A DNA stretch of 64,000 nucleotides from Acidimicrobiales bacterium (GTDB lineage Bacteria > Actinomycetota > Acidimicrobiia > Acidimicrobiales > SZUA-35). The stretch spans positions 3,150,061-3,214,060 of the forward strand of contig CBDCGK010000004.1 in NCBI GenBank assembly GCA_965216675.1, read 5' to 3'. The notes under the pieces were generated by a model. That model was given only the letters and a program-made list of their open reading frames with translations, made no database searches and was not told the DNA's origin. The translations under genes and the position numbers were made by a program. Below, in pieces: positions 16,030-45,936 of this stretch (its first letter is position 1; each line of letters begins with the position of its first letter).

Positions 16030-16042
16030 CTGACCACTTCAG

Positions 16043-16080
16043 AATCTTAGTATTGTCATTGAACAAACTAAGATTGTCAA
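16043..16080 (-). promoter_or_regulatory. candidate promoter/operator of the sugar operon: 9-bp inverted repeat AATCTTAGT-N15-ACTAAGATT abutting a TTGACA box
   Basis: AATCTTAGT at 16043-16051 and ACTAAGATT at 16067-16075. TTGACA (minus strand) at 16080-16075. This is a low-GC island between the ROK regulator and the SBP gene. Confidence 0.6.
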
Positions 16081-16134
16081 GGAGAAGTCGATGCTCAACA
16101 CGTCGCCGTGTGCCGCCCGCTGGTGTTCTTGCGC

Positions 16135-18709: not shown

Positions 18710-19636
18710 TCAGCGGCAGCCAGGTCGAGCCGGAGCGAATCGTAGCGCCCGCACAGCATCAACGATCTCGCTCCAGCTGTTGGTGTACTGGTCCCAGGTG
18801 ACCCGCAGCGTTTGCCAGCCGTGGGCGGCGAGGCGCAGATCTCGTGAGCGGTCGGTCTGGAAGGCAGCAAGGTTGTGATGGTGCGCCACGCTGTCGAGTT
18901 CGAACGCCAGTCGATCAGTGACGTAGGCGGCGTCGACCTGCGCGATCAGTACGCCTTGCGGGTCGACCACTCGGTGTTCGAGAGACGGCCGGCCGAGGCC
19001 GTCCTCCTCGAGCTTGTCGGCGAACCAACGCCCCCATTCCGAGAGCGGGATCGTCGACTCGGCTCGGCGGGTGCGGAGTACCTCGGTGACGACTGAGGAA
19101 CCGGCGCGGCCGCGTTTGCTGAATCGCTCGAGCGCCTTGACGACCCTCTCGGATGTGGTGAGCCGGCGGCGCAGCGCTTCGTCGAGCAGTGCGTGCACCC
19201 CGGCTGGCGTCGTGCTCGCCGACATCGTGGCCACCGCCGATTCGACGGTCGGTACCGTGATCCCGCGACGATGGACGAGGGCCACGTGGTTGAGCGAGCG
19301 GGGTCGAATCACCTCGACGGTGACACAGGTCCGGCTCCCGGTCACCGCCACGACGGGCCGTGGCGGGTGAGGAGCGAGCTGCCACCACCCGATCGCCGAA
19401 GCGGCCCAGGGCACCCCTCCGAGCACTACACAGGAGGCGGCGAGCTGTGCCTCCGGGTCGTCCGCCGCCGAGGCGAGGAGGTAGGCACCGGGCGTCGGGG
19501 CTGGTATCCATTGTTGACGCTCGACCCGCCGCTTGACCTGTCGGGCGGTCATGCCGGCGTCGAGCGCTCGTCGTCTGAGGATGACACCGTGCTGGCGAAC
19601 AGCAGCTCGCTCGACGCGTTCCCGAGGTGATGACAT
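18710..19636 (-). CDS. DUF559 (Vsr-like endonuclease fold) protein with AbiEi_4-like N-terminal wHTH domain
   Basis: N-terminal part RQHGVILRRRALDAGMTARQVKRRVERQQWIPAPTPGAYLL. C-terminal part AYVTDRLAFELDSVAHHH...DRSRDLRLAAHGWQTLRVTWDQ. Start taken at MSSPRE (19636); the ORF track start is 19690. Confidence 0.7.
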   Translation of the reverse strand: MSSPRERVERAAVRQHGVILRRRALDAGMTARQVKRRVERQQWIPAPTPGAYLLASAADDPEAQLAASCVVLGGVPWAASAIGWWQLAPHPPRPVVAVTGSRTCVTVEVIRPRSLNHVALVHRRGITVPTVESAVATMSASTTPAGVHALLDEALRRRLTTSERVVKALERFSKRGRAGSSVVTEVLRTRRAESTIPLSEWGRWFADKLEEDGLGRPSLEHRVVDPQGVLIAQVDAAYVTDRLAFELDSVAHHHNLAAFQTDRSRDLRLAAHGWQTLRVTWDQYTNSWSEIVDAVRALRFAPARPGCR

Positions 19637-21761: not shown

Positions 21762-21825
21762 TCTCTACTCCTCCTTCCGCTCTTCTCAACATCGGTTTGT
21801 GTGACCAAGCCCGGGGTGGCGGGCG

Positions 21826-21858
21826 GTGAATGACGGGCCGTGTTGGCCCGTCATTCAC
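21826..21858. other. intercistronic stem-loop (14-bp perfect stem, 5-nt loop) between the SBP and permease genes
   Basis: gtgaatgacgggcc-gtgtt-ggcccgtcattcac. Confidence 0.7.
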
Positions 21859-21888
21859 GGCGAGCCCGTCACCCCGGGCGAACAAGCA

Positions 21889-26069: not shown

Positions 26070-26897
26070 ATGAGACTGGAGAACCAGGTTGCGGTGATCA
26101 CCGGCGGTGCCAACGGGATCGGTCGAGCCACAGCCATACGGTTCGCCGAGGAGGGCGCTGACGTCGTGATCGCCGACCTGTTGCCGGAGCCGGCGGCGGT
26201 GACGGTCGACGCCGTCGAGGCACTGGGCCGTCGGGCGATCAGCGTCGAGTTGGATGCGGCGAGTCGCGAGTCGAACGAGGCCATGGCCGAAGCGGCGATG
26301 GAGCGGTTCGGCCGGATCGACGTGGTGATGACGGCAGCCGGCATCAGCCACGGCGGCTACCGGAGCGGCGACATCGAGGCCGACCGCAAGATGATGCTCG
26401 GGCAGCTCGATTTCATCGAACAGCCCGCCCTGGCCTTCTGCGCCATCGAACTCGACGATTGGCAGCGGGTCATCGACGTCAACCTCACCGGAACGTTCCT
26501 GGCCATGCAGTCCTGTGCCCGGCGGATGATCGATGGCGGAATCGAGGGCCGGTTCATCACCATCGCCTCGATCGCGGCCAAGCACCCCGATGCCGGCCCG
26601 GTCGCCTACACCGCGTCGAAGGCCGCGGTGTGGATGCTGACCAAGAAATCGGCCCGGGTGCTCGCCCCGGCCGGCATCCGGGTCAACGCCATCGGGCCGG
26701 GATTCATCGCCACCAACATGACCGCCATGATCGACGATTTCGCCGATCGCAAGGACGCGCTCATGGCTCAGATTCCCCTGGGCCGGATGGGCGAACCCCG
26801 TGACATCGCCAACGCCGCTCTGTTCCTGGCATCGGACGAGTCGAGCTACATGACCGGCGAGATCCTCCACCCCGACGGCGGGTTCTTCACCGAATAG
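26070..26897 (+). CDS. SDR family oxidoreductase
   Basis: VAVITGGANGIGRATA (TGxxxGxG) and YTASKAAV (YxxxK). Confidence 0.88.
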   Translation: MRLENQVAVITGGANGIGRATAIRFAEEGADVVIADLLPEPAAVTVDAVEALGRRAISVELDAASRESNEAMAEAAMERFGRIDVVMTAAGISHGGYRSGDIEADRKMMLGQLDFIEQPALAFCAIELDDWQRVIDVNLTGTFLAMQSCARRMIDGGIEGRFITIASIAAKHPDAGPVAYTASKAAVWMLTKKSARVLAPAGIRVNAIGPGFIATNMTAMIDDFADRKDALMAQIPLGRMGEPRDIANAALFLASDESSYMTGEILHPDGGFFTE

Positions 26898-26910
26898 GCG
26901 TTCGCCGCAC

Positions 26911-26957
26911 GTCTGGTAGCAAAAAGCGAGGTCAGACCTCGCTTTTTGCTACCAGAC
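26911..26957. repeat. 47-nt perfect palindrome, member 1 of a conserved palindromic element family; bidirectional intrinsic-terminator-like
   Basis: gtctggtagcaaaaagcgaggtc-a-gacctcgctttttgctaccagac. The inner GC stem is flanked by A5/T5 tracts, and the element lies between convergent genes. Confidence 0.8.
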
Positions 26958-26971
26958 TTCGAGGAGTGGTT

Positions 26972-29900
26972 TCAGCGGCGGGTCCAGGTGCCGCCGGCGG
27001 CGTCGAGGTCGGCGACGACGGCGTCGAGGTCGGCGACGGCCGCGTCGAAACGCTCCCACCATGGACCGAACGCCTCCTCGGCCCGGTCGATCGCTGTGCG
27101 CTGGGTCTGGGTCGGCGGGCCGGTGGTGATCGCCCACGCCATCGACGCCGTGCGGCCGATCAGCTCGGTGATCGACGGCACGTCGGCCTCCGACAGACGC
27201 TCCCGCACCGGATCTCCAGTCAGCTCACGACCGAGCTGCTCGATCGACCGGTGGGCCGCCTCCGACCGTGTGATCAACGACGGATCGGCGGGCGGCGTTC
27301 GCCGAAGCGTCGACCGAATGTGTTTGATCCGCTCGCGGACGGCGTCGAGCTCCTTGCCGGCACCCATCACCGCTCGACCCAGCGCCTCCATCCTGTGGGT
27401 CAACGCCACGACATCAGCACGGTCGTCGAGCGTGCCGGCCAGCTCCGGCACCGGCTTCACATCGAACCACTCCGGTTCGGTCAGGGCCTCATAGCCATCG
27501 GCGGAGAGCACCGCGACCTCCATGGAGTAGCGGCCGGGCTCGACCAGCGGTCCTTCAGGGTCGCGGTCCCACGGCTCCCGGAATCCCGGATCCTCCCACC
27601 GAAGGGGTTGGATCGGCGACCGTCGCAGGTTCCAGGTCGTACGATGCAGGCCGGCCTTGGTCTCGCCGGCCACCATGGCGACCGGCTCGCCGTCAGCGTC
27701 ACGGACCGTGATCACGACGGCCGGGTCGGCCGTGACCCGTTCGGACCACAGCGTGTCGAGGTCGGGAACCGCAATATCGGTGAGGTCCCCGTCGGCCTGT
27801 TCGGACGCCTCCTTCTCGAGTTTGCGTCGGGCCTCGGCGGGTCCCACGACATCGTCGGGTAGAAGGTAGGTGGCCGTGGCCCCGAAGTCGGGATTGGTGG
27901 TGCGGAACGCGCTGGAACCGAGCGTCGGTTGCCCCACCGCCTGGGCGGTGAGCCGGGGCACGTACCACCAGGCATCCCGAACCGGAAACAGCACGGCGTC
28001 CTCACTGGCCGCCACCTCGGCGGTGAGAGCGCGGAGCGGGCTGTAGTCGTCGAGCACGTAGACTCCCCGGCCGAAGGTGGCGCCGATGAGGTCGTCGTCG
28101 CGCCGTTGCACGGCGAGGTCGCGGAACGAGATGGTCGGCACGTCGCCGGTCAACCGGTGCCAGGAGCCACCGCCGTCGACGCTCACATACAGGCCGTTCT
28201 CGGCTCCGGCGAACAGCAGGTCGGGGTTGACGTGGTCCTGCTCGATCGCCCAGACGATGACACCGTCGGGCAGCGCGCCCGCCCCCTGGCCCCGCATCGG
28301 CTGCCAGGTCTCACCCCGGTCGCGGCTCCGGAACACGTAGGGCGTGTAGTCGCCGTGCTTGTGGTCGTCGGCGGCGACGAACACCACGTCGGCGTCGTGC
28401 TCCGATGGGCGCACGGCGTTGATGAACGCGTCCTCCGGCAGCCCGGGTGGCGGCGTGGCGGCACGCCAGGTTGCACCGCCGTCGTCGGTGATGTGGATTC
28501 GCCCGTCGTCGGTGCCGGCGTAGACGAGGCCGTCGACCACCGGTGACTCGCCGAGGCAGCTGACCGTCGAGTAGAGCGACATCGCCATGTGGTCATAGAG
28601 CGAATCGACGCTCGGTACGGCACCGAACGACGGCAGCTCGTAGCGGTTGCGGTCGGTGGTGAGGTCGCCGCTGATCGCCGTCCACGAGTTGCCCCGGTCG
28701 TCGGATCGCCACACCCGTTGGGAGGCGACGTAGATTCGACCCGGCGCATGACGGCTGACCACGATCGGGCAGTCCCAGTTCCATCGCTCGGGCGGGTCGT
28801 CGGGGCCCGCCAGCGGCCGAATGTCGACCCGCTCCCCAGTGCGACGGTTGTGGCGCACCACGTTGCCGACCTGCCATTCCAGATAGCAGATGTCGGGGTC
28901 GTCCGGGTCGAAGGCGGTGTGGTAACCGTCGGCCCCGAGCGGCACCGTCCAATCCTGGTTGCGGACGCCGTCGATGTTGGTGGTGCGGGTCGGTCCGTAG
29001 AGGGTGCCGAGGTCCTGGGCACCGGCCAACACGTTGGTGAACGGAAGCGAGTCGTCGACAGCGATCCGGTAGAACTGCGAGATCGACAGGTTCGGGAAGT
29101 GCCGGAACGTGGTGCCCTCGTCGAAGGTCTCGTAGAGGCCGGCGTCGGTGCCGACGAGGAGGTGATCGGCGTCGACCGGATCGATCCACACCACATGGTT
29201 GTCGGAGTGCTTGTTGGTGCCGGACTCGAGGTGGCCGAAGGTCCTGCCGCCGTCTCGGGTGACGTGGAGGAACACGTCGACCTGGTACACCCGATCGGGG
29301 TCGGTGTCCGAGGCGAAGATCTCCTGGTAGTAGTGGGGTCCGGTGCCGCCGGAGATGTAGCTGTTCTGCTTCGACCAGCTCTCGCCCCGGTCGTCGGAGC
29401 GATAGAAGCCCCGCTCCTTCTCATTGGCCTCGATCGTGGCGTAGACCCGGTCGGGGTCGGCCGCAGTGACGGCCAGGCCGATCTTGCCCATGTCGCCCTT
29501 CGGGAGGCCCTCGGTGATCCGCCGCCAGGTGTCCCCGCCGTCGGTCGAGGTGTGAATACCGGACCCGGATCCGCCGCCGAGGAAGGTGGCCACGTGGCGG
29601 CGGCGCTGATAGGAGGCGGCGTAGAGGGTGTCGGGGTCGTCGGGGGCGAAGCACACCTTGGTGACGCCGGTGTCGTCGTCGATCCGTAGGGCGGCGGTCC
29701 AGGTGGCGCCGCCGTCGGTGGTCTTGTAGACGCCCCGGTCGCCGCCGGACGACCACAGCGGGCCTTCGGCGGCGACGTACACGGTGTCGCCGTCGCGGGG
29801 GTCGACGAGGATGGCGCCGATGTGTTCGGAGTGTTCGAGCCCGACGTGTTCCCAGGTGATACCGCCGTTTCGGCTCCGGTAGACACCGGATCCCCAGGCC

Positions 29901-30220
29901 ACGTGGCGACCACTCACTGCTTCGCCGGTCCCGACCCAGACGGTGTCGGGCCGGGACGGGTCGAGGGTCACACAGCCTATGGAGAACGAGGGCTGGTCGT
30001 CGAAGACCGGGGTCCAGGTGGTGCCGGCATTGGTGGTCTTCCACACACCGCCCGAGCCGACTGCGACATACCACGTCGACGGGCGGCGTGGATCGACGGC
30101 GAGGTCGGCGATGCGTCCACCCATGAACGCCGGTCCGATGGAACGGAGTTTCAGTTGGTCAAGGGCGTCGGCCAGTGGGTTCGGTGTCTGCTCGGTCGGG
30201 TCACCGGGGGTCTCAGGCAT
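26972..30220 (-). CDS. BNR/Asp-box repeat protein, sortilin/VPS10-like double beta-propeller
   Basis: 1082 aa with at least 10 Asp-box motifs: TTNAGTTW, SRNGGITW, TTDGGATW, STDGGDTW, SDDRGESW, TRDGGRTF, SDDRGNSW, TDDGGATW, SRDRGETW, SVDGGGSW. No obvious signal peptide. Confidence 0.8.
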   Translation of the reverse strand: MPETPGDPTEQTPNPLADALDQLKLRSIGPAFMGGRIADLAVDPRRPSTWYVAVGSGGVWKTTNAGTTWTPVFDDQPSFSIGCVTLDPSRPDTVWVGTGEAVSGRHVAWGSGVYRSRNGGITWEHVGLEHSEHIGAILVDPRDGDTVYVAAEGPLWSSGGDRGVYKTTDGGATWTAALRIDDDTGVTKVCFAPDDPDTLYAASYQRRRHVATFLGGGSGSGIHTSTDGGDTWRRITEGLPKGDMGKIGLAVTAADPDRVYATIEANEKERGFYRSDDRGESWSKQNSYISGGTGPHYYQEIFASDTDPDRVYQVDVFLHVTRDGGRTFGHLESGTNKHSDNHVVWIDPVDADHLLVGTDAGLYETFDEGTTFRHFPNLSISQFYRIAVDDSLPFTNVLAGAQDLGTLYGPTRTTNIDGVRNQDWTVPLGADGYHTAFDPDDPDICYLEWQVGNVVRHNRRTGERVDIRPLAGPDDPPERWNWDCPIVVSRHAPGRIYVASQRVWRSDDRGNSWTAISGDLTTDRNRYELPSFGAVPSVDSLYDHMAMSLYSTVSCLGESPVVDGLVYAGTDDGRIHITDDGGATWRAATPPPGLPEDAFINAVRPSEHDADVVFVAADDHKHGDYTPYVFRSRDRGETWQPMRGQGAGALPDGVIVWAIEQDHVNPDLLFAGAENGLYVSVDGGGSWHRLTGDVPTISFRDLAVQRRDDDLIGATFGRGVYVLDDYSPLRALTAEVAASEDAVLFPVRDAWWYVPRLTAQAVGQPTLGSSAFRTTNPDFGATATYLLPDDVVGPAEARRKLEKEASEQADGDLTDIAVPDLDTLWSERVTADPAVVITVRDADGEPVAMVAGETKAGLHRTTWNLRRSPIQPLRWEDPGFREPWDRDPEGPLVEPGRYSMEVAVLSADGYEALTEPEWFDVKPVPELAGTLDDRADVVALTHRMEALGRAVMGAGKELDAVRERIKHIRSTLRRTPPADPSLITRSEAAHRSIEQLGRELTGDPVRERLSEADVPSITELIGRTASMAWAITTGPPTQTQRTAIDRAEEAFGPWWERFDAAVADLDAVVADLDAAGGTWTRR

Positions 30221-30504: not shown

Positions 30505-30909
30505 TCAGGATGTGAACGGCTGTCGCCAAGCGGGCGGTGGCTCTGATCGTTCGGTCACCCAGTGCTCGACGCCCGACTCGATCAGGCCACCGACCACCCG
30601 GTAGAAGCCGGCGCACCAGAACGTGACTTCATGATTGTCTGCGCCGTCGTCGACACCGTGGTCGTCGCGGTGTCTGACTCGCACCTGGGCGGCGACTCGA
30701 TCCCCGTCAGCGATGGTCTCCACGACCTCGATGGTCCAGCCCTCCGGATAGGCGCGGTTCATAGCCAGGAAATTGCCGCCGTCGAAGTGTTCGCCGGTCT
30801 CGGTGAACTCGATGTGCACGTCGGGCGACAGCAGCGCAGCGGCGCCGTTCCAGTCGCGGGCCTGCATCCGCTCGAAGAACTCTCGAACCACGCCGGCGGT
30901 GGATTCCAT
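30505..30909 (-). CDS. SnoaL/NTF2-like fold protein
   Basis: 134 aa beginning VVREFFERMQARDWNGAAALLSPDVHIEF..., typical of SnoaL-like domains. Confidence 0.55.
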   Translation of the reverse strand: MESTAGVVREFFERMQARDWNGAAALLSPDVHIEFTETGEHFDGGNFLAMNRAYPEGWTIEVVETIADGDRVAAQVRVRHRDDHGVDDGADNHEVTFWCAGFYRVVGGLIESGVEHWVTERSEPPPAWRQPFTS

Positions 30910-31005
30910 AATGAGGACGATACCGACAACCCGGTCATGGCCGGGCGGCGAGGCCGTACCGGCCCGCCAACCACGTGGGTTGGAGCCCGAACCACAGATC
31001 CTGAT

Positions 31006-31051
31006 TCTCGTAGCAAAGAGCGAGGTTCTGCCTCGCTTTTTGCTACCAGAC
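31006..31051. repeat. palindromic element family member 2 (degenerate: 2-3 arm mismatches)
   Basis: tctcgtagcaaagagcgagg-ttctg-cctcgctttttgctaccagac. It lies in a divergent promoter region, not at a gene end. Confidence 0.75.
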
Positions 31052-31058
31052 GTCGAGG

Positions 31059-31107
31059 GCCGACGTTCTCCTTGACAACCGGTCCATGCATAGTTAGTTT
31101 AGTAAAC
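31059..31107 (+). promoter_or_regulatory. predicted promoter/operator of the second ROK regulator (TTGACA-18 nt-TAGTTT, ATG 7 nt after the -10 box, no SD) with palindrome GTTTAgTAAAC
   Basis: cgacgTTCTCCTTGACAaCCGGTCCATgcatagtTAGTTTagtaaacATG. It shares TTCTCCTTGACAA with the 16.08-kb promoter, and shares CCGGTCCAT and AGTTTAGT-A-CATG with the 17.35-kb promoter. Confidence 0.55.
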
Positions 31108-32259
31108 ATGCAAACAGGGACGAGGGGGCAGGCCCGCTGCGACACGACGCCGAAAAAGGCGTCTCGGACCCATTCGAAGGCCCACAACCTTCGAATGCTC
31201 CTACAGGTCATCGCCGATCAAGGCTCCATCAGCCGGGCCGACCTCGCCCGGGCCACCGGCCTGACCCGGGCGTCGGTGTCGACCCTGATGGCCGAACTGG
31301 TCGACAACCGCTGGGTCACCGAAGCCGGGCCCGGTGAGTCGGCCGGCTCGTCAGGCGGTAAACGTCCCACGCTGCTCGAACTCGACCGGACCAGTCGCGA
31401 CATCATCGTGATGGACCTGAGCACCCGTCCCCTGAGCGGGGTCGTCGTCGACATCGCGGGTACACCCCGTTTCGAGGCGATCCTCGAGCCGGTCGAGACC
31501 GACGACACCGGTGCCGTGGCCGCCGCCTCGATCGCCAAGCTCACCGCTCGGCTCCTCGACCGCTGCGAGGGCGAGCTACTGGGCGTCGGTGTCGCCTGTC
31601 CGGGTGTGATCGATCACGAAGGCCGCGTCGTCGAGTCGGTCCCGCTCGGATGGCATGATTTCGATCTCGCCGGCTGTATCCGCAGCGTCGGCGCGGAATC
31701 CGACGACCGTCGGATACAGGGCCCACCCATCCAGATCATCAACGACGCCCAGGCGGTGGCCCTGGCCATTCATCGGCGGCAGGCCCCGGACTCGGAGCCC
31801 GATTCAGTGTCCCGGCCCGCCGCCGACCTCGTGGCCGTTCGGGTGGCCTTCGGTGTCGGCGCCGGCGTGGTGCTCGGCGGCCGGCTTCACCTCGGTCCGC
31901 ACCGGGCGGCCGGTGAGATCGCACCGCTGGTCAAAGCGCTGATGGGCCGACCCATCACCGATCCGCTCGACGTCGACGCCGACGACGCCGTGGTCGCCAC
32001 CCCGGAACTGGGCACGGCCATCGGGTCGGCCTCCGGGCATCTGGCCAACGTGCTCGACATCGCCACGGTCTATGTCGCCGTACCAAGCGCCGGACTGAAC
32101 CCGGCGTTCGAGGAGGCCGCTCGGGCCGCGGCCGACGAAGCCGTGCTCTCCGCCCTCCGCCCGGAACTCCACCTTGGCGCCGTGGCCGACGACGGCCTGG
32201 CCCTCCACGGCGCGGCCGCCTACCTGCTCCAAACCGAAACCGGGCTCGTCGCGGGCTGA
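31108..32259 (+). CDS. ROK family transcriptional regulator (paralog of 16135..17340)
   Basis: wHTH NLRMLLQVIADQGSISRADLARATGLTRASVSTLMAELVDNRWV followed by a ROK body. The ORF-track start at 30562 overlaps the opposite-strand gene and the intergenic region. Confidence 0.85.
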   Translation: MQTGTRGQARCDTTPKKASRTHSKAHNLRMLLQVIADQGSISRADLARATGLTRASVSTLMAELVDNRWVTEAGPGESAGSSGGKRPTLLELDRTSRDIIVMDLSTRPLSGVVVDIAGTPRFEAILEPVETDDTGAVAAASIAKLTARLLDRCEGELLGVGVACPGVIDHEGRVVESVPLGWHDFDLAGCIRSVGAESDDRRIQGPPIQIINDAQAVALAIHRRQAPDSEPDSVSRPAADLVAVRVAFGVGAGVVLGGRLHLGPHRAAGEIAPLVKALMGRPITDPLDVDADDAVVATPELGTAIGSASGHLANVLDIATVYVAVPSAGLNPAFEEAARAAADEAVLSALRPELHLGAVADDGLALHGAAAYLLQTETGLVAG

Positions 32260-32334
32260 CAGTCGAACCGGTTCCAATCCCACCACCTCTGCGCACCCTT
32301 CCCAAGAAAGAGTCCTGAGAAAGAGAGAGAAGAC

Positions 32335-33801
32335 ATGAAGGTACCGAAACTGCTTCCAGTACTGCTCGTACTGGTCCTGTTCCTGGCGGCGTGTGCCAAC
32401 AGCGAAGACACCGCAACCGACACCGACGACGGCGCCGATACCGAGGAGACGACCGAGTCGACCGCGGCGGCCGACGACGGCGACGACACCGACGGCGATG
32501 ATGCCGGGGGCGATGAAGGTGACGATGCGGCCGCCGTCGAGGCGTCGACACCCTACGAGCACCTGAACCGCGCCCTGGCCGGCGAGTTCGACGGCACCGA
32601 GGTCGAAATCCTCGGCCAATGGGTCGAGACCGAAGCCGACGGTTTCGACGCCGCCCTGGCCCAACTCGAGGAGGCGTCCGGCATCACCATCAACTACGAG
32701 GGCGTCACCGACTACGAGACCGTGCTCACCGTGCGCGTCGACGGCGGCAACGCCCCCGACCTGGCCCAGATCGCCCAACCCGGACTTATGCGCACCTTCG
32801 CCTCCGAAGGCCAAATCGTGCCCGTGTCGGACTGGATCAACACCGACCAGCTCAACAACGACTACATCAGCTCCTTCATCGACCTGGCGTCGTACGAGGG
32901 CGACATCTACGGCGTGTTCTACAAGGCCGACGTGAAGTCCATCGTGTGGTACCCGGTGCAGGCCTTCGCCGACGCCGGCTACGAAATCCCCGAGACCTGG
33001 GACGACCTCGTCGCCCTGTCCGATCAGATCGTGGCCGACGGTAACGGCAACCCCTGGTGCATCTCGGTCGAGCACAGCGACTTCTCCGGCTGGGTGGCCA
33101 CCGACTGGCTGGAGGATGTGCTCCTGCGCACGGCCGACCCGTCGGTCTATGACCAATGGGTCAACCACGAGATCGCCTTCGATGACCCGGAGATCCTGGA
33201 GGCGGCCGACTATGTGAAAGAGATCTGGTTCACCGACGACTATGTGTTCGGCGGCAACACCGGCATCAACTCGATCTGGGTCGGCGACACTCAGACACCG
33301 ATGTTCGACGAGGCCGGACCGCAGTGCTGGATGCACAAGCAGGCGGCGTGGATCCCCGGCTTCTGGCCCAAGGACGCCAACGAGGAGCCACTGTTCGAAC
33401 CGGGCGTCGACAGCTCCTTCTTCTACTTCCCCCCGATCGAAGCGGAGTACGGTTCTCCGGCCCTCGGCGGCGGTGACCAGTTCGTGATGTTCAACGACCG
33501 CCCCGAGGTCCGGGCCGTTCTCGAGTTCCTCGCCACCCCCGAGGGGGCCAAAGGCTGGATCGATGTCGGCGGGTTCCTGTCGCCGAACCAGAGCACACCG
33601 CTCGACTGGTACACCCAGTATCCGCAGACCGATCTGGCCGCCATTCTCAACGAGGCCACGACCTTCCGGTTCGACGCCTCCGACACCATGCCGGCCGAGG
33701 TCGGCAACGGCACCTTCCTGACCGGCATGGTCGACTGGGTGTCGGCCAACGGTGAAGGCACCGACCAGGTGTTCGCCGACATCGAGGCGAGCTGGCCCTA
33801 G
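32335..33801 (+). CDS. extracellular solute-binding lipoprotein of a sugar ABC transporter
   Basis: MKVPKLLPVLLVLVLFLAACANSED lipobox, an acidic linker, and a family-1 SBP body. Confidence 0.88.
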   Translation: MKVPKLLPVLLVLVLFLAACANSEDTATDTDDGADTEETTESTAAADDGDDTDGDDAGGDEGDDAAAVEASTPYEHLNRALAGEFDGTEVEILGQWVETEADGFDAALAQLEEASGITINYEGVTDYETVLTVRVDGGNAPDLAQIAQPGLMRTFASEGQIVPVSDWINTDQLNNDYISSFIDLASYEGDIYGVFYKADVKSIVWYPVQAFADAGYEIPETWDDLVALSDQIVADGNGNPWCISVEHSDFSGWVATDWLEDVLLRTADPSVYDQWVNHEIAFDDPEILEAADYVKEIWFTDDYVFGGNTGINSIWVGDTQTPMFDEAGPQCWMHKQAAWIPGFWPKDANEEPLFEPGVDSSFFYFPPIEAEYGSPALGGGDQFVMFNDRPEVRAVLEFLATPEGAKGWIDVGGFLSPNQSTPLDWYTQYPQTDLAAILNEATTFRFDASDTMPAEVGNGTFLTGMVDWVSANGEGTDQVFADIEASWP

Positions 33802-33952
33802 GCCGGGAAGCCGGTAGCAAACCTTCTCCCTTCACCGCCCGGCTGGTGGGCTTCCACCGAGGCACACCGGCCGGGCGGTCCTTGTCCTGACAGCATCTTC
33901 GTGACTGTCCTCACCTGACCTGGCGCGGGCCGATGGCGAAAGGATCGAGCAC

Positions 33953-35164
33953 ATGACGAGCACCATCGACACGACCACCGAACCGACCGTCGACCCGCCG
34001 GTGACCGGGCGCTCCGCGCGGTCCGGTCGACCGCTGACCGGGCCGCTCGCCGCAGTCGCCGTCCTGATCGGGCTGGCCGTCGCGGCCAGGATCAGCCTCC
34101 GCAACCTCACCGACGCCGACGGGGCCGGAGAGCTCATGGCCGGGCTCTACGATCTGATCGGGCTCGGCGGGCAGGCCGACGCCATCCGCGACCGGGGCCT
34201 CCAGCCGCTCCCGGCCACCCTGATCACCCTCCTGTGGGCCCTGGTGCTCGGCTCGGTCGGAATCTGGGCCTTGTACTGGGCGCTCAACACCCTGGTCGAT
34301 ACGCTCGGATCGAGGTGGGGTGAACGTGTCCGACCCTACGCGTACATTGCACCGGCCGTGGCCATGCTCGGGTTCTACCTCGTCTACCCGCTCGTGGCGA
34401 CCGTCTACTTCAGCCTCACCCTCGACGACGGCCCGGCCAACTTCTCGAACCTCGTCGCCGACCCCGAAGTTCAGCGAGCGCTTGTCAACAACCTGATCTG
34501 GCTCGTGGTCGCCACCGGGGGGAGTGTGGCCCTCGGCCTCGTCATCGCCCAGCTCTTCGACCGGGTCAAGCGGGAGGCGCTGGCCAAGACGTTCGTCTTC
34601 CTCCCCCTGGCGCTGTCGATGGTCGGGGCCAGCGTCATCTGGCGCTTCATGTACATCTGGCGGCCCGAGGGCCAGCCGCAGATCGGCTTGATCAACTCGA
34701 TCGTGACGTCGCTCGGCATCCCGCCGATCTCGCTGTTGCAGGAGGTGCCGGTCAACACCTTCGCCCTGATCGCCATCATGGTGTGGCTCCAGACCGGCTT
34801 CGCCATGGTCATCCTGTCGGCCGCCATCAAGGGCGTCGGGTCGGAGCTGCTGGAAGCGGCCCGGATCGACGGCGCCAACGAGTTCCAGGTGTTCACCAAG
34901 ATCATCATCCCGTCGATCCGGGGAAGCATCATCACGGTGGCCACCACCATCGCCATCGCGGTGCTGAAGGTGTTCGACATCGTGTTCGTGATGACCGGCG
35001 GCCGCTTCGAGACCGAGGTGATGGCCAACCGCATGTTCTCCCAGATGTTCAAGTTCCGGAGCTTCGGTTTGGCCAGCGCCACGGCCGTGACCCTGTTCGC
35101 CATGGTCATCCCCATCATGGTCCTCAACATCCGCAACTTCCGCCGTCAGGAGCTGGAACGATGA
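33953..35164 (+). CDS. carbohydrate ABC transporter permease (MalF-like)
   Basis: TM-rich, with the EAA loop LEAARIDGANEFQVFTKIIIPSIRG. Confidence 0.88.
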   Translation: MTSTIDTTTEPTVDPPVTGRSARSGRPLTGPLAAVAVLIGLAVAARISLRNLTDADGAGELMAGLYDLIGLGGQADAIRDRGLQPLPATLITLLWALVLGSVGIWALYWALNTLVDTLGSRWGERVRPYAYIAPAVAMLGFYLVYPLVATVYFSLTLDDGPANFSNLVADPEVQRALVNNLIWLVVATGGSVALGLVIAQLFDRVKREALAKTFVFLPLALSMVGASVIWRFMYIWRPEGQPQIGLINSIVTSLGIPPISLLQEVPVNTFALIAIMVWLQTGFAMVILSAAIKGVGSELLEAARIDGANEFQVFTKIIIPSIRGSIITVATTIAIAVLKVFDIVFVMTGGRFETEVMANRMFSQMFKFRSFGLASATAVTLFAMVIPIMVLNIRNFRRQELER

Positions 35165-36021
35165 GCAGATTCGATCCCACCACGCTACGACGATTTCCCC
35201 TCCAGGCGGCCACGGTGCTGATCGTGGTGTTGTGGTCGCTGCCGACGACCGGCCTGCTGATCAGCTCGTTCCGCCCGCAGGGCGATGTCGCCACCACCGG
35301 CTGGTGGTCGGCGCTGGCCCACCCGTTCGAGACCTCGACCTGGACGATGGCCAACTACGAGGGGGTCCTCAACGCCGGTGGCCTCTGGCGGGCGTTCGGC
35401 AACAGCATCGTCATCTCGATCCCGGCCACCGTGATCCCGATCACCGTCGCCGCGTTCGCCGCCTACGCATTTGCCTGGATGAAGTTCCCCGGACGCCAAT
35501 TGCTGTTCTCGTCGGTCGTGCTGTTGCTGGTGGTTCCGCTGCAGATGACGCTGGTGCCGCTGCTGCGGATCTACACTCGGGCCGACCTGGGCGGCACCTA
35601 CGTCGGCACCTGGCTGGCCCACGCCTCGTTCGGTCTGCCACTCGCCGTCTACCTGCTCTACAACTACATCTCGTCGCTCCCGTCCGAGCTGATGGAGTCG
35701 GCGCGGATCGACGGAGCATCCCACTATGACATCTTCCGCAGACTCGTGATCCCGCTCTCGTTCCCCGCGCTGGCGTCGTTCGCCATCTTCCAGTTCCTGT
35801 GGGTGTGGAACGATCTTCTGGTCAGCCTCGTCTTCCTCGGCACCGACTCCGAGGTGGCCACGCTGACCGCCCGGCTGAACGAGCTGGTCGGCTCCCGGGG
35901 TGAGGCCTGGCACATCCTGACCGCCGGTGCGTTCGTCTCGATGGCCATCCCGCTTGTGGTGTTCCTGTCGCTCCAGCGGTTCTTCGTGCGCGGCCTGCTC
36001 GCCGGCTCGGTGAAGGGCTGA
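35161..36021 (+). CDS. carbohydrate ABC transporter permease (MalG-like)
   Basis: MSRFDPTTLRRFPLQAATVLIVVLW... and the EAA loop MESARIDGASHYDIFRRLVIPLSFP. ATGA overlap with the upstream permease. Confidence 0.88.
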   Translation: MSRFDPTTLRRFPLQAATVLIVVLWSLPTTGLLISSFRPQGDVATTGWWSALAHPFETSTWTMANYEGVLNAGGLWRAFGNSIVISIPATVIPITVAAFAAYAFAWMKFPGRQLLFSSVVLLLVVPLQMTLVPLLRIYTRADLGGTYVGTWLAHASFGLPLAVYLLYNYISSLPSELMESARIDGASHYDIFRRLVIPLSFPALASFAIFQFLWVWNDLLVSLVFLGTDSEVATLTARLNELVGSRGEAWHILTAGAFVSMAIPLVVFLSLQRFFVRGLLAGSVKG

Positions 36022-36023
36022 GC

Positions 36024-37592
36024 GTGGTCGACGAGCAGTTCCACATCGTCGATCGCTCCATGTTGTGGGGGTTCGACGGCACCGACGTGCCGTCGTTGCT
36101 GGTCGAGCGAATGCAGGCGGGCCTGCTGTCGGGCATCACCCTCTTCCGCTACTTCAACTCGTTGACCAAGGCCGTGGCCGCGGAGGTGGTGGCGGAGCTG
36201 GGAGACACCGTCGACGGCCTGCCGTTGCTCATCGCGGTCGACCAGGAGGCCGGTCAGCTCCGCGGTGTCGCCGACACCGTGCCCTTCGCCGGCAACCTCG
36301 CGCTCGGAGCGGTCGACGACGTCGGGCTCACCGAAGCGGTCGGCGACATGATCGGCCGGGAGCTGCGCTCGGTCGGGATCACCATGAACTACTCCCCGGT
36401 GGCCGACGTGATGAGCCGCCCCGGGAACCCGTCGCTCGGCATCCGGTCGTTCGGCTCCGACCCCGGTCGGGTGGCCGACCACACCGCGGCGTTGGTGCGA
36501 GGCCTGCGCCGGGGCGGTGTGCTGACGGTGGCCAAACACTTCCCGGGCAAAGGTGAGGCGCAGTCCGATCCCCATCACGACCTACCGGTGCTCGACGTGG
36601 ACGTCGTCCGCCTCGAGGCCATCGACCTGCCGCCGTTCCGCGCCGCGGTGGATGCCGGGGTCGACGCCGTGATGGTCGGTCACTATGCGCTACCCGGCCT
36701 GCACGATGGACGGGAGGATCTGCCGGCGTCGGTGTCGCCCGCCGTTGTCGAGGGGATGCTGCGCCGCGATCTGGGTTTCGGTGGCCTCGCCATCACCGAC
36801 GCCCTCGACATGGGCTCACTGGCCCAGGGGGCCGGGTCGCTGATCGAGGCCGTCGGGGCGCTGCGAGCGTCGGTCGATCTGCTCTTGTGCGCAGCCGACA
36901 TCGATCGGGCCGAGGAGCTGTCGTCCGGTCTCCGCCTTGCGTACAGCCGTGGTCTGCTCACTCCGGAGGCGGTCGCCGGCGGTCACGCCCGCATCCAGCG
37001 GGCCCGCATCGCGCTGGCGTCGTTGACGGTCCCGGCCCACGATGCCGCCGAGGCGGTGGCGCTTGCCGACGACTTGGCTCGGCGAGCCGTCACGTTGGTT
37101 CGCGACGAGGTCGGCTTGATCCCGGTTGCCGGTGGCAGCCGGGTGGCGTCGATCATGGTCGAGCCCACGGATCTGACACCGGCGGAGACCTCGTCGCACG
37201 AGCCGCCCGGCCTGGCGGCGGCGTTGTCGAGGCGGTTCGACGTCGCCCACGATGTGGTGGTGCCCCCCGAGCCTTCGGGTGACGACGTCGAGCGGGCAGT
37301 GGCCGCGGCGGCCGATGCCGATGTCGCCGTCGTCGGCACGATCACTGCCCGGAAGGCACAGGGCGATCTCGTACGGGCCGTCCAAGACGTGGCTCCCACG
37401 ATCACCGTGGCGCTGCGTACGCCGTTCGACCTCTCGCTCTACCCGTCCTCCTCGACCCACGTCTGCACCTACGGCCTGCTCGAACCCTCGCTCCATGCGC
37501 TGGCCGACGCCCTTGCCACCGGATCGGCGCCGGGTCGGCTGCCCTGCCCCATCGGCGAACTCCACCCCCGAGGCCACGGCCTCCCCCGCTGA
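36024..37592 (+). CDS. glycoside hydrolase family 3 protein (beta-N-acetylhexosaminidase/beta-glucosidase-like)
   Basis: GH3 N-terminal domain motifs: LIAVDQEAGQL, NYSPVADV, KHFPGKGEAQSDPHHDLPV. The GTG start is 2 nt after the permease stop. Confidence 0.82.
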   Translation: MVDEQFHIVDRSMLWGFDGTDVPSLLVERMQAGLLSGITLFRYFNSLTKAVAAEVVAELGDTVDGLPLLIAVDQEAGQLRGVADTVPFAGNLALGAVDDVGLTEAVGDMIGRELRSVGITMNYSPVADVMSRPGNPSLGIRSFGSDPGRVADHTAALVRGLRRGGVLTVAKHFPGKGEAQSDPHHDLPVLDVDVVRLEAIDLPPFRAAVDAGVDAVMVGHYALPGLHDGREDLPASVSPAVVEGMLRRDLGFGGLAITDALDMGSLAQGAGSLIEAVGALRASVDLLLCAADIDRAEELSSGLRLAYSRGLLTPEAVAGGHARIQRARIALASLTVPAHDAAEAVALADDLARRAVTLVRDEVGLIPVAGGSRVASIMVEPTDLTPAETSSHEPPGLAAALSRRFDVAHDVVVPPEPSGDDVERAVAAAADADVAVVGTITARKAQGDLVRAVQDVAPTITVALRTPFDLSLYPSSSTHVCTYGLLEPSLHALADALATGSAPGRLPCPIGELHPRGHGLPR

Positions 37593-37605
37593 GCTCAACT
37601 CACGG

Positions 37606-37652
37606 TTCTGGTAGCAAAAGGCGAGGTGGAACCTCGCCTTTTGCTACCAAAC
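37606..37652. repeat. palindromic element family member 3 (18-bp perfect stem, compensatory change relative to member 1)
   Basis: ttctggtagcaaaaggcgaggt-gga-acctcgccttttgctaccaaac. The right arm supplies the last codons and the TAG stop of the MocR gene. Confidence 0.8.
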
Positions 37653-39110
37653 GTCGTTGGTGACGGCGATTCGGGCGAGAGCATCGGCGAACTCGACGGA
37701 GGCCGCCTCGCCGGTGGCAGCGAAGGAGGCGACAAGACCCGGCGGGCCGGGCGTGAGCCGGTAGCGGGACAGTGGTGGCACGTCGATCCCCGCCGCCAGC
37801 AGCGTCTCGGAGACGGCGCGATCGTCGATACCGTCGGGAAGGAGGACGGTGACGTGGAGGCCGCCGGCGGCACCGACGGTTGTCGCTCCGGGCACGTCGT
37901 CCAGCGCGGTGATCATGGCGCGCCGCCGCTTCCGGTAGGTTCGCCGCCTCGATCGGACGATGCGATCGTAGGCGCCGGAGGTGAGAAGATCGGCCAGCGC
38001 GTGCTGCTGGACGGCATCGGGGGTCACGAACTCATGGCGCAGTCTCGCCCCGACCCGCTCGGCCACCCCTGTCGGAAGATGAAGCCACCCGATCCGCAGG
38101 CCCGGCGCCAGGGTCTTCGACACCGAACCGGTGTGGGCGGTCACCTCGGGGGCGATGCCGGCAACGGCCCCGACCGGCTGACGGTCGTAGCGGAACTCGG
38201 CGTCGTAGTCGTCCTCCACGATGAGCCGACCGGGTTGCGAGCGGGCCCAGGTCACCAGCTCGTGACGGCGCTCGGGCGACAGCACACCGCCAAGTGGGTA
38301 CTGGTGGGCGGGCGTCACGACCACGATGTCGGCGTCGACCCGCTCGAGGCGGTCGGTTCTGATTCCCTGGTCGTCGACCGGCACCGGCACCAGCTCGGCA
38401 CCCGCGGCTCGCAGGGCGTCCCACTGGGTATAGGCCCCGGGGTCCTCGACCGCCACCCGAGCCGATCCCGCCGCGGCGACCCGATCGGCGACGAGTAACC
38501 GAAGCGATGCACTCACCCCGGTGGTGATCAGCACCCGGGCAGGGTCGGTGCCGATGGCGCGGGTGCGGGCCAGGTGAGCGGCCACGGCTTCACGCAGAAT
38601 CGGTGCGCCGGTGCCGTCGCTGTAGCCGAGCTCGGCCACCGGCATCGTGGTCAGCGCCGCATTCAGACTGCGGCGCCACTCCCGGACGGGAAAGGCGACG
38701 AGATCGGGCAGGCCTGGTTGGAGGTCGATGTGGATCGGTGGCGAGACGCCGACCTGCAACCGGTCGGCCGTGCCGCCTCCTCCCTCCGACCGTTCGGCCG
38801 TCACGTCTCCGGTCCGTTCGGTCGGCGCAGCGTCGATGGGCCGAGGGGCGACCCGGGTGCCGTCGCCGGCCCGGGCCGTCAGGTAACCCTCGGCATTCAA
38901 CTGGTCGTAAGCGTCGACCACCACGTTGCGGGCCCAACCCAGTTCCGAGGCAAGAGCCCGGGTCGAGGGCAGCCGATCGCCGGCGGTGAGACGCCCTATC
39001 CGAATGGTGTCCCGGAGCGCCGCCTGCAATCGGAGCGACTTGGTCGGCTCGGGTCGGTCCCCCAGCTCGAGGAAGAGGCGGGTCATCGATGGACCCGTCG
39101 AACGAGCCAC
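37644..39110 (-). CDS. MocR/PdxR-type regulator (GntR wHTH fused to a PLP-dependent aminotransferase-like domain)
   Basis: LPSTRALASELGWARNVVVDAYDQLNAEGYL (GntR HTH) and SVSKTLAPGLRIGWL (PLP lysine context). Confidence 0.85.
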   Translation of the reverse strand: MARSTGPSMTRLFLELGDRPEPTKSLRLQAALRDTIRIGRLTAGDRLPSTRALASELGWARNVVVDAYDQLNAEGYLTARAGDGTRVAPRPIDAAPTERTGDVTAERSEGGGGTADRLQVGVSPPIHIDLQPGLPDLVAFPVREWRRSLNAALTTMPVAELGYSDGTGAPILREAVAAHLARTRAIGTDPARVLITTGVSASLRLLVADRVAAAGSARVAVEDPGAYTQWDALRAAGAELVPVPVDDQGIRTDRLERVDADIVVVTPAHQYPLGGVLSPERRHELVTWARSQPGRLIVEDDYDAEFRYDRQPVGAVAGIAPEVTAHTGSVSKTLAPGLRIGWLHLPTGVAERVGARLRHEFVTPDAVQQHALADLLTSGAYDRIVRSRRRTYRKRRRAMITALDDVPGATTVGAAGGLHVTVLLPDGIDDRAVSETLLAAGIDVPPLSRYRLTPGPPGLVASFAATGEAASVEFADALARIAVTNDVW

Positions 39111-45832: not shown

Positions 45833-45936
45833 TTGACACTGTCCGTTGACACTGTCAAGTTTTTCGGACTCAGGTCTTGACAGTGGCAACATCTCTGCGT
45901 AGGGTTTCGATCTTACCACTGGAAACTTGACACTGG
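45833..45936. promoter_or_regulatory. TetR/MMPL divergent control region with four TTGACA(C/G)TG repeats, one forming the palindrome TTGACAcTGTCAA
   Basis: ttgacactgtc 45833-45843; ttgacactgtcaa 45846-45858; ttgacagtgg 45877-45886; ttgacactgg 45927-45936. Confidence 0.65.

Follow-up and report, generated by a model that had tools for sequence, protein, structure and literature searches.

We found that three palindromic sequences, lying within 11 kb of the window (the whole 64-kb stretch of DNA analysed here), are probably members of a GTAG-tagged, double-foot REP family in uncultured Acidimicrobiia of a marine/sediment lineage. Both a GTAG...CTAC double foot and REPs lying in-frame within genes have been described before (PMC6006769), and the GTAG foot, stem sub-families and gene-end position, among other features, are published REP properties (PMC3733652). 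The repeat thus belongs to an element type already known; it leaves the understanding of REPs unchanged and adds a member to them.

Anatomy of the repeat

A preliminary description of this DNA had reported three copies of a conserved palindromic element of about 47 nt, and we recovered all three at their reported positions. The arm motif GGTAGCAAAARGCGAGG, with up to three mismatches, matched six times in the window against a mean of 0.08 in 100 dinucleotide-preserving shuffles, none of which (0/100) reached six. The palindrome is conserved as described, but the unit is longer, ~53-55 nt, and consists of two 25-nt half-sites and a 3-nt loop, measuring 37 nt from foot to foot. A covariance model built from 19 copies detected no further copy within the 64-kb window.

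Copy 1, described as perfect, is a full 53-nt unit (26908..26960, 80.2 bits by the covariance model; no strand is assigned to any of the three). Its palindrome at 26911-26957 has 23-nt arms without mismatch and a gap of 1 nt. GTAG at 26916-26919 and CTAC at 26949-26952 form its feet, and between them the core runs from an A-tract (26921-26925) through the GC stem and loop (26926-26942) to a T-tract (26943-26947). The predicted RNA fold has -43.8 kcal/mol on the plus strand and -42.9 kcal/mol on the minus strand (z = -8.3 and -8.0). The copy lies between a convergent gene pair, a short-chain dehydrogenase (SDR) gene (26070..26897, plus strand; Pfam adh_short_C2, 3.5e-62), whose TAG stop is 18 nt before GTAGC, and a BNR/sortilin-repeat protein gene (26972..30220, minus strand; Pfam Sortilin-Vps10/BNR), whose TGA stop is 19 nt from the other foot.

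Copy 2 (31002..31054, 67.3 bits by the covariance model) is degenerate, as had been noted: its left arm, CGTAGCAAAGAGCGAGG, has two mismatches, while the right arm is unbroken, and the two strands fold at -36.4 and -34.1 kcal/mol. It occupies a divergent 5'-5' intergenic region with a gene end on neither side, upstream of the start of a SnoaL-like gene (30505..30909, minus strand; Pfam SnoaL_2) that diverges from the gene of a ROK-family regulator with a MarR-type HTH and a ROK domain (31108..32259, plus strand; Pfam ROK, MarR_2). The latter is the first gene of a sugar ABC/GH3 operon, and its putative promoter, with a promoter-like TTGACA hexamer, lies ~20 nt downstream of the copy.

Copy 3 (37603..37655, 72.8 bits) is complete and belongs to the G-C sub-family (AAAAG/CTTTT). 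Its stem is perfect, as first described, and we now place the palindrome at 37609-37649, with 19-nt arms without mismatch and a gap of 3 nt; the strands fold at -40.6 and -42.5 kcal/mol. The genes on its two sides are convergent. One is a glycoside hydrolase family 3 gene (36024..37592, plus strand; Pfam Glyco_hydro_3, 2.6e-56), the last of the sugar operon, with its TGA stop 18 nt before GTAGC; the other encodes a GntR/MocR-family PLP-dependent regulator (37644..39110, minus strand; Pfam GntR and Aminotran_1_2). The CTA at 37644-37646 in the right arm is the TAG stop of this minus-strand gene, whose reading frame ends in …GAC GTT TGG TAG, codons that coincide with the copy's outer foot and GTAG (gap -4). 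The C-terminal tails of MocR orthologues vary in length and sequence, so that a comparison of orthologues cannot tell whether copy 3 encodes the tail.

With positions numbered from the G of GTAGC, the half-site runs from -8 to +16 and reads [C/G]AAG[T/A][C/T]T[T/G]GTAGCAAAA[A/G]GCGAGG[T/C], and beyond -8 its information content is at background level. The stem of 13 bp, C-AAAA(A/G)-GCGAGG-(T/C), leads into the 3-nt loop and is followed by the complementary arm, CTAC and the outer foot. This outer foot, CAAGWYT(T/G), stands just outside GTAG; its 6 nt are conserved in sequence yet unpaired in about half of the copies. The earlier statement that sequence as well as structure is conserved holds from -8 to +16. 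The conserved right flank ACCARACKTCG is real as well; it is not confined to the right side but is the outer foot, present on both. Its conservation is accounted for neither by termination nor by simple hairpin recognition.

GTAG is invariant in 42/42 half-sites, 38 of which were ascertained with a GTAG-containing pattern; the other four (L128:1222 and L097:7332) were found by the covariance model. Since the search pattern fixed alignment columns 15-30 and 36-51 in 19 of the 21 copies, the invariance of these columns is partly built in. Nearly all copies pair columns 13-31 with columns 35-53, and covariation was seen at 24:42 (A-U in 11, G-C in six), 31:35 (U-A in nine, C-G in five) and 14:52 (U-A in 11, G-C in three). 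These compensatory stem changes define sub-families of the repeat. CT precedes the foot in 27/42 half-sites.

A perfect dyad whose half-sites are conserved in sequence, with no need for their outer parts to pair, might also be expected of a 2 x 25-bp palindrome bound by a dimeric protein that regulates or organises the genes beside it. Such a site could be an operator on DNA, or could bind a nucleoid protein or a recombinase, for example as recombination sites bracketing the sugar operon. Copies 2 and 3 flank this operon, which is present or absent among relatives, and copy 2 is directly upstream of a promoter-like site. However, most copies are flanked by 3' ends of unrelated genes and are not at promoters, the compensatory changes keep an intramolecular pairing that a duplex-DNA site does not need, and no recombinase gene was found nearby. 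Furthermore, locus L134 has the same operon without a copy, indicating that the operon can be present without them. We consider a protein-binding site of this kind highly improbable. The ROK promoter block is conserved in the window and in L134, and the upstream element occurs in the window only. Copies 2 and 3 as a mobile module round the sugar operon were rejected because the L134 operon has no copies.

Two further site types were discarded. An integron attC site, marked by R''/R' core sites (RYYYAAC ... GTTRRRY), extrahelical bases, co-oriented cassette arrays and an intI gene close by, does not fit, for conserved AAC/GTT cores are lacking at the ends and the stems are perfect; in addition, most copies are between convergent chromosomal genes, and the window has no integrase gene. 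A dif/Xer site was rejected on anatomy and position.

Dispersal and insertion sites

The family comprises 21 non-redundant copies, three in the window and 18 on 14 other loci (12 metagenome contigs and two MAG contigs) of related marine/sediment Acidimicrobiia. The strict full two-arm pattern matched on 16 metagenome contigs, and one Acidimicrobiia MAG, from a sister organism, carries the repeat on at least two of its contigs. When a 16-mer arm pattern was run over a 596-Gb genome collection, 2/115 loci were real among the matches listed, and the rest were chance single-arm hits. A covariance model from the copies had been proposed in the preliminary description; the model, built from 19 copies, added two diverged ones, L128:1222 and L097:7332. 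In L097 the second copy lies 94 nt beyond an intact one and has lost its A/T tracts. The source genome shows three copies in 64 kb, all within 11 kb, and one 2.9-kb contig carries three; copy number per genome is possibly modest.

The preliminary description had named two outcomes that would refute its reading: a lack of further copies genome-wide, or copies confined to this region as a local duplication with no 3'-end signal. Additional copies are present in the genome of a sister organism and in metagenomes. The flanks of the 21 copies are unrelated beyond -8, and their neighbours are unrelated housekeeping or metabolic genes. Similarity extends only ~8 nt outside GTAGC, into unrelated gene surroundings, and the copies did not arise by duplication of a local segment.

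The host was placed in Acidimicrobiia by the names of its TruA and DnaE2 homologues. TruA of the element-bearing locus L119 shares 83% identity with the TruA encoded on the 5.17-Mb contig that contains the window and ~70% with those of MAGs named Acidimicrobiales/Acidimicrobiia. Distribution among relatives is patchy: eight loci of the closest relatives (~124 kb, partly syntenic with the window, orthologous sites included) contained no copies. At one orthologous site, in L141, we found a decayed or sister palindrome that matches 34/51 informative columns; elsewhere in the relatives' DNA no stretch scores above 31. Rfam 15 gave only noise-level miRNA and snoRNA matches over the region, and the plasmid, phage and viral collections held nothing similar to the repeat. 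A single plasmid match spans only the generic core AAAAAGCGAGG...CCTCGCTTTTT.

Comparison of filled and empty sites pointed to insertion. In four orthologues TruA ends in ...LWQVDY(PD/PE/DN), while in L119 it ends in ...LWQVDYEGYRPAHVL, the stop being the TAG of the arm; judged by sequence, this tail, longer by 7-9 residues, looks like an insertion. In L124 a unit lies in-frame inside dnaE2 and is encoded as KSGSKKRGDTSLFATNLG, with GC3 of 0.85-0.91 on each side, and in six homologues the linker at the insertion point is 3-6 residues long. The dnaE2 insert of P0245 was rejected as a copy, for it is a Ser/Gly-rich stretch and not a palindrome. A palindrome in L138 was not taken as a second family, as only one instance was found in the DNA examined.

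Copies are concentrated at gene ends. The TAG of the arm serves as the stop codon in at least six genes. The spacing from stop to repeat is -4 in five cases and otherwise 10-39 nt, mostly 10-23 nt, with a mode of 18-19. Eight of the 14 classifiable copies occupy convergent junctions, compared with 16% in the background (p = 5e-4), and several copies are upstream of gene starts.

Dispersal, restriction to one lineage, presence or absence at orthologous sites and inverted-repeat ends would also suit a MITE dependent on a DDE transposase, and a dispersed REP/MITE-like repeat, or a specific recognition site, is what the preliminary description had deduced from the shared outer GGTAGC/GCTACC arms and flank. 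The dispersed, REP-like part of this reading stands, with a double-foot REP architecture. At none of the boundaries between 16 and 31 nt from the axis were 2-5-bp direct repeats in excess, and this lack of target-site duplications disfavours a MITE. The 55-nt unit is a single hairpin with a 3-nt loop and has no internal segment between terminal repeats; a transposase gene was absent from the window and from the element-bearing contigs examined; and the plasmid, phage and viral collections were without similar sequence. A MITE is therefore a very unlikely reading.

In Neisseria and Haemophilus, DNA-uptake sequences are often arranged downstream of genes in inverted pairs that form terminators, and the present palindromes could in principle be such pairs doubling as terminators. 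However, uptake sequences are ~10-12 nt long, whereas the conserved half-site here has 25 nt. Isolated half-sites are absent from the window (0, even with three mismatches), the repeat density is far below that of uptake sequences, and we know of no natural competence in this lineage. We give this explanation almost no credence.

Predicted termination at gene ends

The preliminary description had likened the core to a bidirectional intrinsic terminator, and our predictions agree: A5, GC stem and T5 follow one another, and stable folds are predicted on both strands. Across the family the order A5/A4G, GCGAGG(Y), 3-nt loop, (R)CCTCGC and T5/CT4 is the canonical form of an L-shaped bidirectional terminator, with RNA folds on both strands at -34 to -44 kcal/mol (z = -4.8 to -9.5). 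Among the window's 44 gene 3' ends, a strong hairpin with a T-run occurs only at the four that adjoin copies 1 and 3. Since no other gene end in the window has a hairpin-plus-U-tract structure, termination in both directions is plausible, as judged from predicted structure and position. The copies are absent from the output of a consensus terminator scan, probably owing to the T-run being taken up into the maximal stem. With 4-5 U the U-tract is short, and in the complete hairpin it pairs with the A-tract. A further caution comes from TRIT, the analogous Tuberculosis Rho-independent terminator motif of Mycobacterium: each predicted terminator class there, TRIT among them, overlapped Term-seq 3' ends at only 2-4% (bioRxiv 10.1101/2022.06.01.494293).

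On RNA, the core would act as an intrinsic terminator in both directions, with UUUU(U)GCU immediately after a GC hairpin of 7-9 bp. In read-through transcripts the full 19-25-bp hairpin may serve as a structure that protects the 3' end or is processed by RNase. Such a terminator or 3'-end role would account for the retention of copies at gene ends and their decay at other sites. Decay away from gene ends is seen in copy 2, in its divergent promoter region, and in the second L097 copy.

These observations raise the question of whether the copies are host terminators and not mobile DNA at all. They would then form a sequence-conserved bidirectional class like TRIT of Mycobacterium, with a dedicated RNA- or DNA-binding factor that recognises the GUAGC/foot motif, and local evolution or gene conversion, not transposition, would give rise to the copies. 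The exclusive occurrence of hairpin-plus-U-tract structures at these copies among the window's gene ends, their narrow position after the stop and enrichment at convergent junctions would all be expected, and an outer foot conserved in sequence and not in pairing fits recognition by a protein. TRIT is a precedent from the same phylum: it is reported to be a palindrome conserved in sequence and structure, mostly bidirectional, found at a narrow distance from gene termini and overlapping the coding end (Gardner et al. 2011, PMC3152330). Most of the stable gene-end structures are motif copies, the sequence conservation is unexplained, and the authors proposed a factor that binds the motif.

However, copies in-frame in dnaE2, in a divergent promoter region and upstream of gene starts are not in terminator positions. 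The same junctions in the closest relatives have unrelated hairpins or overlapping genes, and a motif missing there counts against a factor-dependent terminator class, which would be expected to be shared. The insertion-like TruA tail of 7-9 residues that ends in the element, and GTAG/CTAC feet, which are the signature of REPs (PMC3733652, PMC6006769), also argue against host terminators, which we regard as unlikely. TRIT was reported to be restricted to Mycobacterium, unlike the Acidimicrobiia repeat, and is not described as GTAG-tagged or insertion-polymorphic; the comparison is by description only.

A REP origin and a terminator function might be combined. In this tentative scenario, which we think unlikely in its entirety, the repeat is a self-propagating portable terminator: a REP hairpin evolved into a bidirectional terminator with stop codons and is spreading and replacing older gene-end hairpins, in a lineage otherwise without U-tract terminators. 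It would be driven by an undescribed actinobacterial RAYT or by a RAYT-independent route, and TRIT might be an element of the same kind.

Proposed spread and relation to known REPs

As a REP family, the repeat would spread through single-stranded hairpins processed by a host-encoded HUH/Y1 RAYT (TnpA_REP) enzyme. Such an enzyme would recognise the GTAG foot and stem and cut at a nearby CT; cleavage by TnpA_REP at CT requires GTAG (PMC8266576). Either strand would be a possible substrate, because both carry a GTAG foot. No RAYT gene was found in ~300 kb, a tiny fraction of each genome, with an E. coli RayT phmmer search and an HUH/Y-motif regex, a search of low power in that it used one distant probe and a stricter regex missed even the E. 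coli control. The word 'Actinobacteria' is absent from the text of three REP/RAYT papers (PMC2817692, PMC3733652, PMC6006769), and no paper in the literature searched joined REPIN, RAYT and Actinobacteria. A RAYT driver in Actinobacteria is thus an extrapolation.

The closest known system is that of the double-foot long REPs of TnpA_REP subclass 2.4, or RAYT group 4 (Quentin et al. 2018, PMC6006769), whose main hosts are Cyanobacteria and Bacteroidetes (PMC6006769). Like these, the present repeat has a 5' GT[AG]G foot and a 3' C[TC]AC on one hairpin with a long stem, multiple dispersed copies and in-frame insertions within genes. It differs in the A5/T5 stem tracts that make a canonical bidirectional terminator, in the extra 6-nt motif outside the foot, in its Acidimicrobiia host and in showing no cognate tnpA_REP within the ~300 kb searched.

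It also shares with the GTAG REP super-family (Di Nocera et al. 2013, PMC3733652; Nunvar et al. 2010, PMC2817692) a [T/G]GTAG(C) head abutting the stem, sub-families set apart by complementary stem changes, and patchy distribution among relatives. In both, most copies lie between convergent or unidirectional ORFs less than 20 bp from 3' ends, genes can take their TAG stop codon from the GTAG terminus, and intragenic copies occur in DnaE2 and tRNA pseudouridine synthase genes. GTAG REPs have a 6-13-bp stem and a 2-3-nt loop, as in the S. maltophilia example GGTAGCGCCGGGCCATGCCCGGCG (PMC3733652; PMC2817692). In the 24 described GTAG families, however, GTAG is unpaired and at one end only, whereas here it is paired and at both ends; and the unit, which spans 37 nt between the feet and ~55 nt once the outer motif is included, is longer than the 20-40 bp of GTAG REPs.

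The REP/BIME elements of E. coli are likewise extragenic palindromes with a GTAG foot (PMC6006769, PMC3733652); they stabilise RNA 3' ends, are sometimes terminators and are RayT substrates (PMC6006769, PMC3733652). Their stems are bulged and imperfect and have no U-tract, in contrast to the perfect or near-perfect hairpins with A/T tracts found here, and they form BIME clusters of alternating orientation, whereas the present units are single.

A GTAG double-foot family in Acidimicrobiia would widen the range of REPs to Actinomycetota. Almost all REP studies concern Proteobacteria, with some on Cyanobacteria and Bacteroidetes. It would also be a selfish-looking repeat equipped with both a stop codon and a complete predicted two-way terminator, and its spread would therefore rewire gene ends directly. 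Among the genes affected, TruA appears to have gained a tail, the MocR-family gene and others stop inside the repeat, and DnaE2 carries an 18-residue loop. These findings suggest a possible link to the unexplained sequence conservation of TRIT. In practice, the units may serve as landmarks for gene-end annotation and could flag spurious C-terminal extensions in the MAGs of this lineage.

The repeat unit and its pairing

The preliminary description had reported three palindromes in the window, and all three were confirmed where it placed them. Their units lie at 26908-26960 (copy 1), 31002-31054 (copy 2) and 37603-37655 (copy 3), with copies 1 and 3 between convergent genes and copy 2 in a divergent region upstream of a ROK regulator gene. 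The perfect arms measure 23 nt in copy 1 and 19 nt in copy 3, and the left arm of copy 2 has two mismatches. Allowing up to three mismatches, the arm motif occurs six times in the window, against 0.08 expected from dinucleotide-preserving shuffles, and a covariance model detected no further copies in the 64 kb. The elements are about 50% G+C, compared with 67.6% for the window.

To define the extent of the unit, 42 half-sites from 21 non-redundant copies were stacked, the right halves being reverse-complemented. We found that the half-site is conserved from -8 to +16, counted from the G of GTAGC, as [C/G]AAG[T/A][C/T]T[T/G]-GTAGC-AAAA[A/G]-GCGAGG-[T/C], and that conservation falls to background level outside -8. 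The unit therefore consists of two 25-nt halves and a 3-nt loop, about 53-55 nt in all, so that the original estimate of about 47 nt was too short. The flank first described as conserved on the right is indeed conserved; it is the outer foot, which the left side carries as well.

Pairs were counted on a 19-copy alignment, in which the inner helix (columns 13-31 versus 35-53) is nearly always paired. Compensatory changes occur at positions left free by the search pattern: 24:42 (A-U in 11 copies, G-C in 6), 31:35 (U-A in 9, C-G in 5) and 14:52 (U-A in 11, G-C in 3). The outer foot (columns 7-12 versus 54-59) keeps its sequence, yet is unpaired in about half of the copies, and its variants GTC, GAT, CTC and GAC assort independently between left and right sides. 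Nineteen of the 21 copies were found with a pattern that fixed columns 15-30 and 36-51, so that the invariance of these columns is in part an effect of ascertainment; both copies found by the model (L128:1222 and L097:7332, on contigs from related Acidimicrobiia) retain GTAG and GCGAGG.

A dispersed family at gene ends

The view that the palindromes are a dispersed repeat was borne out by the recovery of 21 non-redundant copies, including copies on related Acidimicrobiia contigs, next to unrelated genes. Among the 115 loci listed for a loose pattern in a public collection, two were true two-arm copies, both in one Acidimicrobiia MAG from San Francisco Bay sediment. In metagenomes, a strict two-arm pattern matched 16 contigs, which come from JGI sediment projects and from an ENA marine assembly, and the total was reached after duplicates were removed and model matches added. 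The 2.9-kb contig L128 carries three copies and L097 two, 94 nt apart. Genes flanking the copies encode aldehyde dehydrogenase, a TPP enzyme, acyl-CoA dehydrogenase, choline kinase, enoyl-CoA hydratase, TruA, DnaE2 and others, and are mutually unrelated. The phage, plasmid and viral collections held nothing similar, Rfam gave no match, and no orthologue was common to the window and the element-bearing contigs.

Some local features were also seen. The L128 copies fall within 1.9 kb (495-2347), where each of three successive genes is followed by one; the two middle genes appear to be accessory (by eye, DUF1963/YwqG-type and AbiEi/DUF559-type), the AbiEi/DUF559-like one being about 30% identical to window ORF 18719-19597 (-). 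To the immediate left of a copy, at L121:156-200, is a run of three tandem ~17-nt repeats (gcacagcgcaagattt) that include the outer foot motif.

TruA from the element-bearing locus L119 shares 83% identity with a protein on the 5,169,313-bp contig that bears the window's MocR gene, 77% with its orthologue in a 5.39-Mb genome and about 70% with those of MAGs named Acidimicrobiales or Acidimicrobiia. DnaE2 homologues place the host likewise, under names that include Ilumatobacteraceae and Microthrixaceae. Eight loci of the closest relatives, about 124 kb (three syntenic with the window and five truA loci), contain no copy. Its distribution is therefore patchy and restricted to a lineage, and the family has not been fixed at these gene ends since ancient times.

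When ORFs with GC3 support are used, a stop codon precedes at least 20 of the 42 half-sites. Measured to the G of GTAG, its distance spans a narrow range: -4 (five times), 10, 15, 16, 18 (three times), 19 (four times), 21, 22, 23, 31 and 39 nt. At -4 the TAG inside GTAGC serves as the gene's stop codon, as for the window MocR-family gene at copy 3 and, on a looser ORF call (GC3 0.75), both convergent ORFs of L123. Eight of the 21 copies are convergent, five unidirectional, one divergent (window copy 2) and one intragenic; two adjoin one gene end with the other side unknown, and four lie near a gene start or contig edge. Convergent contexts make up 8 of 14 classifiable copies versus 16% of window junctions (p = 5e-4). 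Read toward the element, the flanks from -9 to -30 are mildly C-rich, with C in 25-27 of 42 half-sites at -30, -17, -10 and -9, which might come from the composition of the coding strand or from a rut-like bias.

Filled and empty sites

In four orthologues without the element, TruA ends in LWQVDY(PD/PE/DN) before the stop codon. The L119 protein ends in LWQVDYEGYRPAHVL, and its terminal CAC GTC TTG TAG is the element's outer foot plus GTAG. The convergent gene downstream of truA is orthologous in L119 and the relatives' loci L135 and L138, but what separates the two genes differs: L119 carries the family element and L138 an unrelated perfect palindrome of 19 bp, and in L135 the genes overlap. 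The L138 palindrome, a single instance (9053-9093; also L139:1340-1380), TTCCTGAACGATCCGCGCA / TGCGCGGATCGTTCAGGAA, has C-rich and G-rich outer flanks, and its right arm holds the convergent gene's stop codon.

At L124:2328-2392, a family unit lies in-frame within the error-prone polymerase gene dnaE2 (identified by Pfam and source names), with a GC3 of 0.85-0.91 on either side. It encodes KSGSKKRGDTSLFATNLG, 18 added residues between the conserved TAGAFDCF and RR.ALWEAGA blocks, at a site where six homologues have a linker of 3-6 residues. An 81%-identical dnaE2 orthologue has a palindrome at this site too, likewise in frame (L141:1211-1275, CCCGCAAGAATTTCGACAAAAAGCG...CGCCTGGTGCAGAAATTCTTGCGGG). 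This palindrome and the family have the outer foot in common, and some of the core; the GTAG feet and T-tract are absent. It agrees with the family at 34 of the 51 informative columns. Elsewhere on the plus strand, neither the relatives' loci nor the window offers a stretch that scores above 31, and in the null drawn from both strands the only such score is that of its reverse complement. Judged by its sequence, the L141 palindrome is a putative decayed or sister element.

The window and the relative's locus L134 share a conserved ROK promoter block, and copy 2 lies just upstream of it only in the window. No target-site duplication was found at any assumed boundary.

The AT-rich promoter/operator-like block upstream of the ROK regulator gene (31073-31115; conserved in L134) contains TTGACA, a 16-nt spacer, TAGTTT and a small palindrome, GTTTAGTAAAC. 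Copies 2 and 3 bracket a ROK-SBP-permease-permease-GH3 sugar operon (31108-37592); L134 has the same operon without copies, and in L133 the operon is absent and the MocR gene abuts a BNR gene. The three copy-bearing window junctions hold other accessory genes in relatives, OLD-TOPRIM in L134 and DUF222 in L133.

Terminator shape and relation to known REPs

The core, A5 (or A4G), GCGAGG(Y), a 3-nt loop, (R)CCTCGC and T5 (or CT4), has the textbook A-tract/GC stem/T-tract layout of a bidirectional intrinsic terminator, which the preliminary description had said it resembles. The three window copies fold as RNA on both strands at -34 to -44 kcal/mol (z -4.8 to -9.5). In a survey of 44 window gene 3' ends, a strong hairpin with a T-run was present only at the four that adjoin copies 1 and 3; the other strong gene-end hairpins have GC-rich stems without U-tracts. 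Such hairpins follow genes at 239-273, the 3' end of 17440-18612, 21818-21866 and 33834-33879 (-35 to -42 kcal/mol in 50-nt windows), and stem-only hairpins appear to be this organism's usual gene-end structures. From its shape, the element may act as a bidirectional terminator. The mycobacterial terminator motif TRIT is analogous, and it cautions against assuming termination: by Term-seq in M. tuberculosis, predicted-terminator classes including TRITs overlap mapped 3' ends at 2-4% each (bioRxiv 10.1101/2022.06.01.494293). Operator-like inverted repeats, AT-rich or imperfect, lie at 16037-16081, beside a ROK regulator and sugar ABC operon, and at 45845-45890, beside a TetR gene divergent from an MMPL transporter gene.

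The REP-like reading offered at the outset is supported by a match to published traits of GTAG-tagged and double-foot repetitive extragenic palindromes (REPs). GTAG-tagged REPs have a terminal GTAG, stems of 6-13 bp and loops of 2-3 nt, with sub-families that differ by complementary stem changes. They are found chiefly between ORFs in convergent or unidirectional arrangement, at <20 bp from 3' ends, donate TAG stop codons from their GTAG termini, occur within genes, explicitly those for DnaE2 and tRNA pseudouridine synthase, and are distributed patchily among relatives (PMC3733652). The element agrees with this description point by point and resembles the S. maltophilia REP head GGTAGC-GCCGGGC-CAT-GCCCGGC-G (PMC2817692). 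Its paired GTAG at both ends is no departure from REPs: long 'double foot' REPs carry 5' GT[AG]G and 3' C[TC]AC, have reported in-frame insertions and go with TnpA_REP subclass 2.4 (RAYT group 4), scattered over several phyla (PMC6006769). TnpA_REP, the cognate transposase, acts on single-stranded REP hairpins, depends on GTAG and cuts at CT (PMC8266576). In the present family, a CT stands before the foot in 27 of 42 half-sites. A weak search of about 300 kb found no RAYT gene.

Collectively, these data are best read as a new REP family in Acidimicrobiia, of the known GTAG double-foot type, whose hairpin doubles as a bidirectional terminator-like structure and whose copies supply stop codons to adjoining genes.
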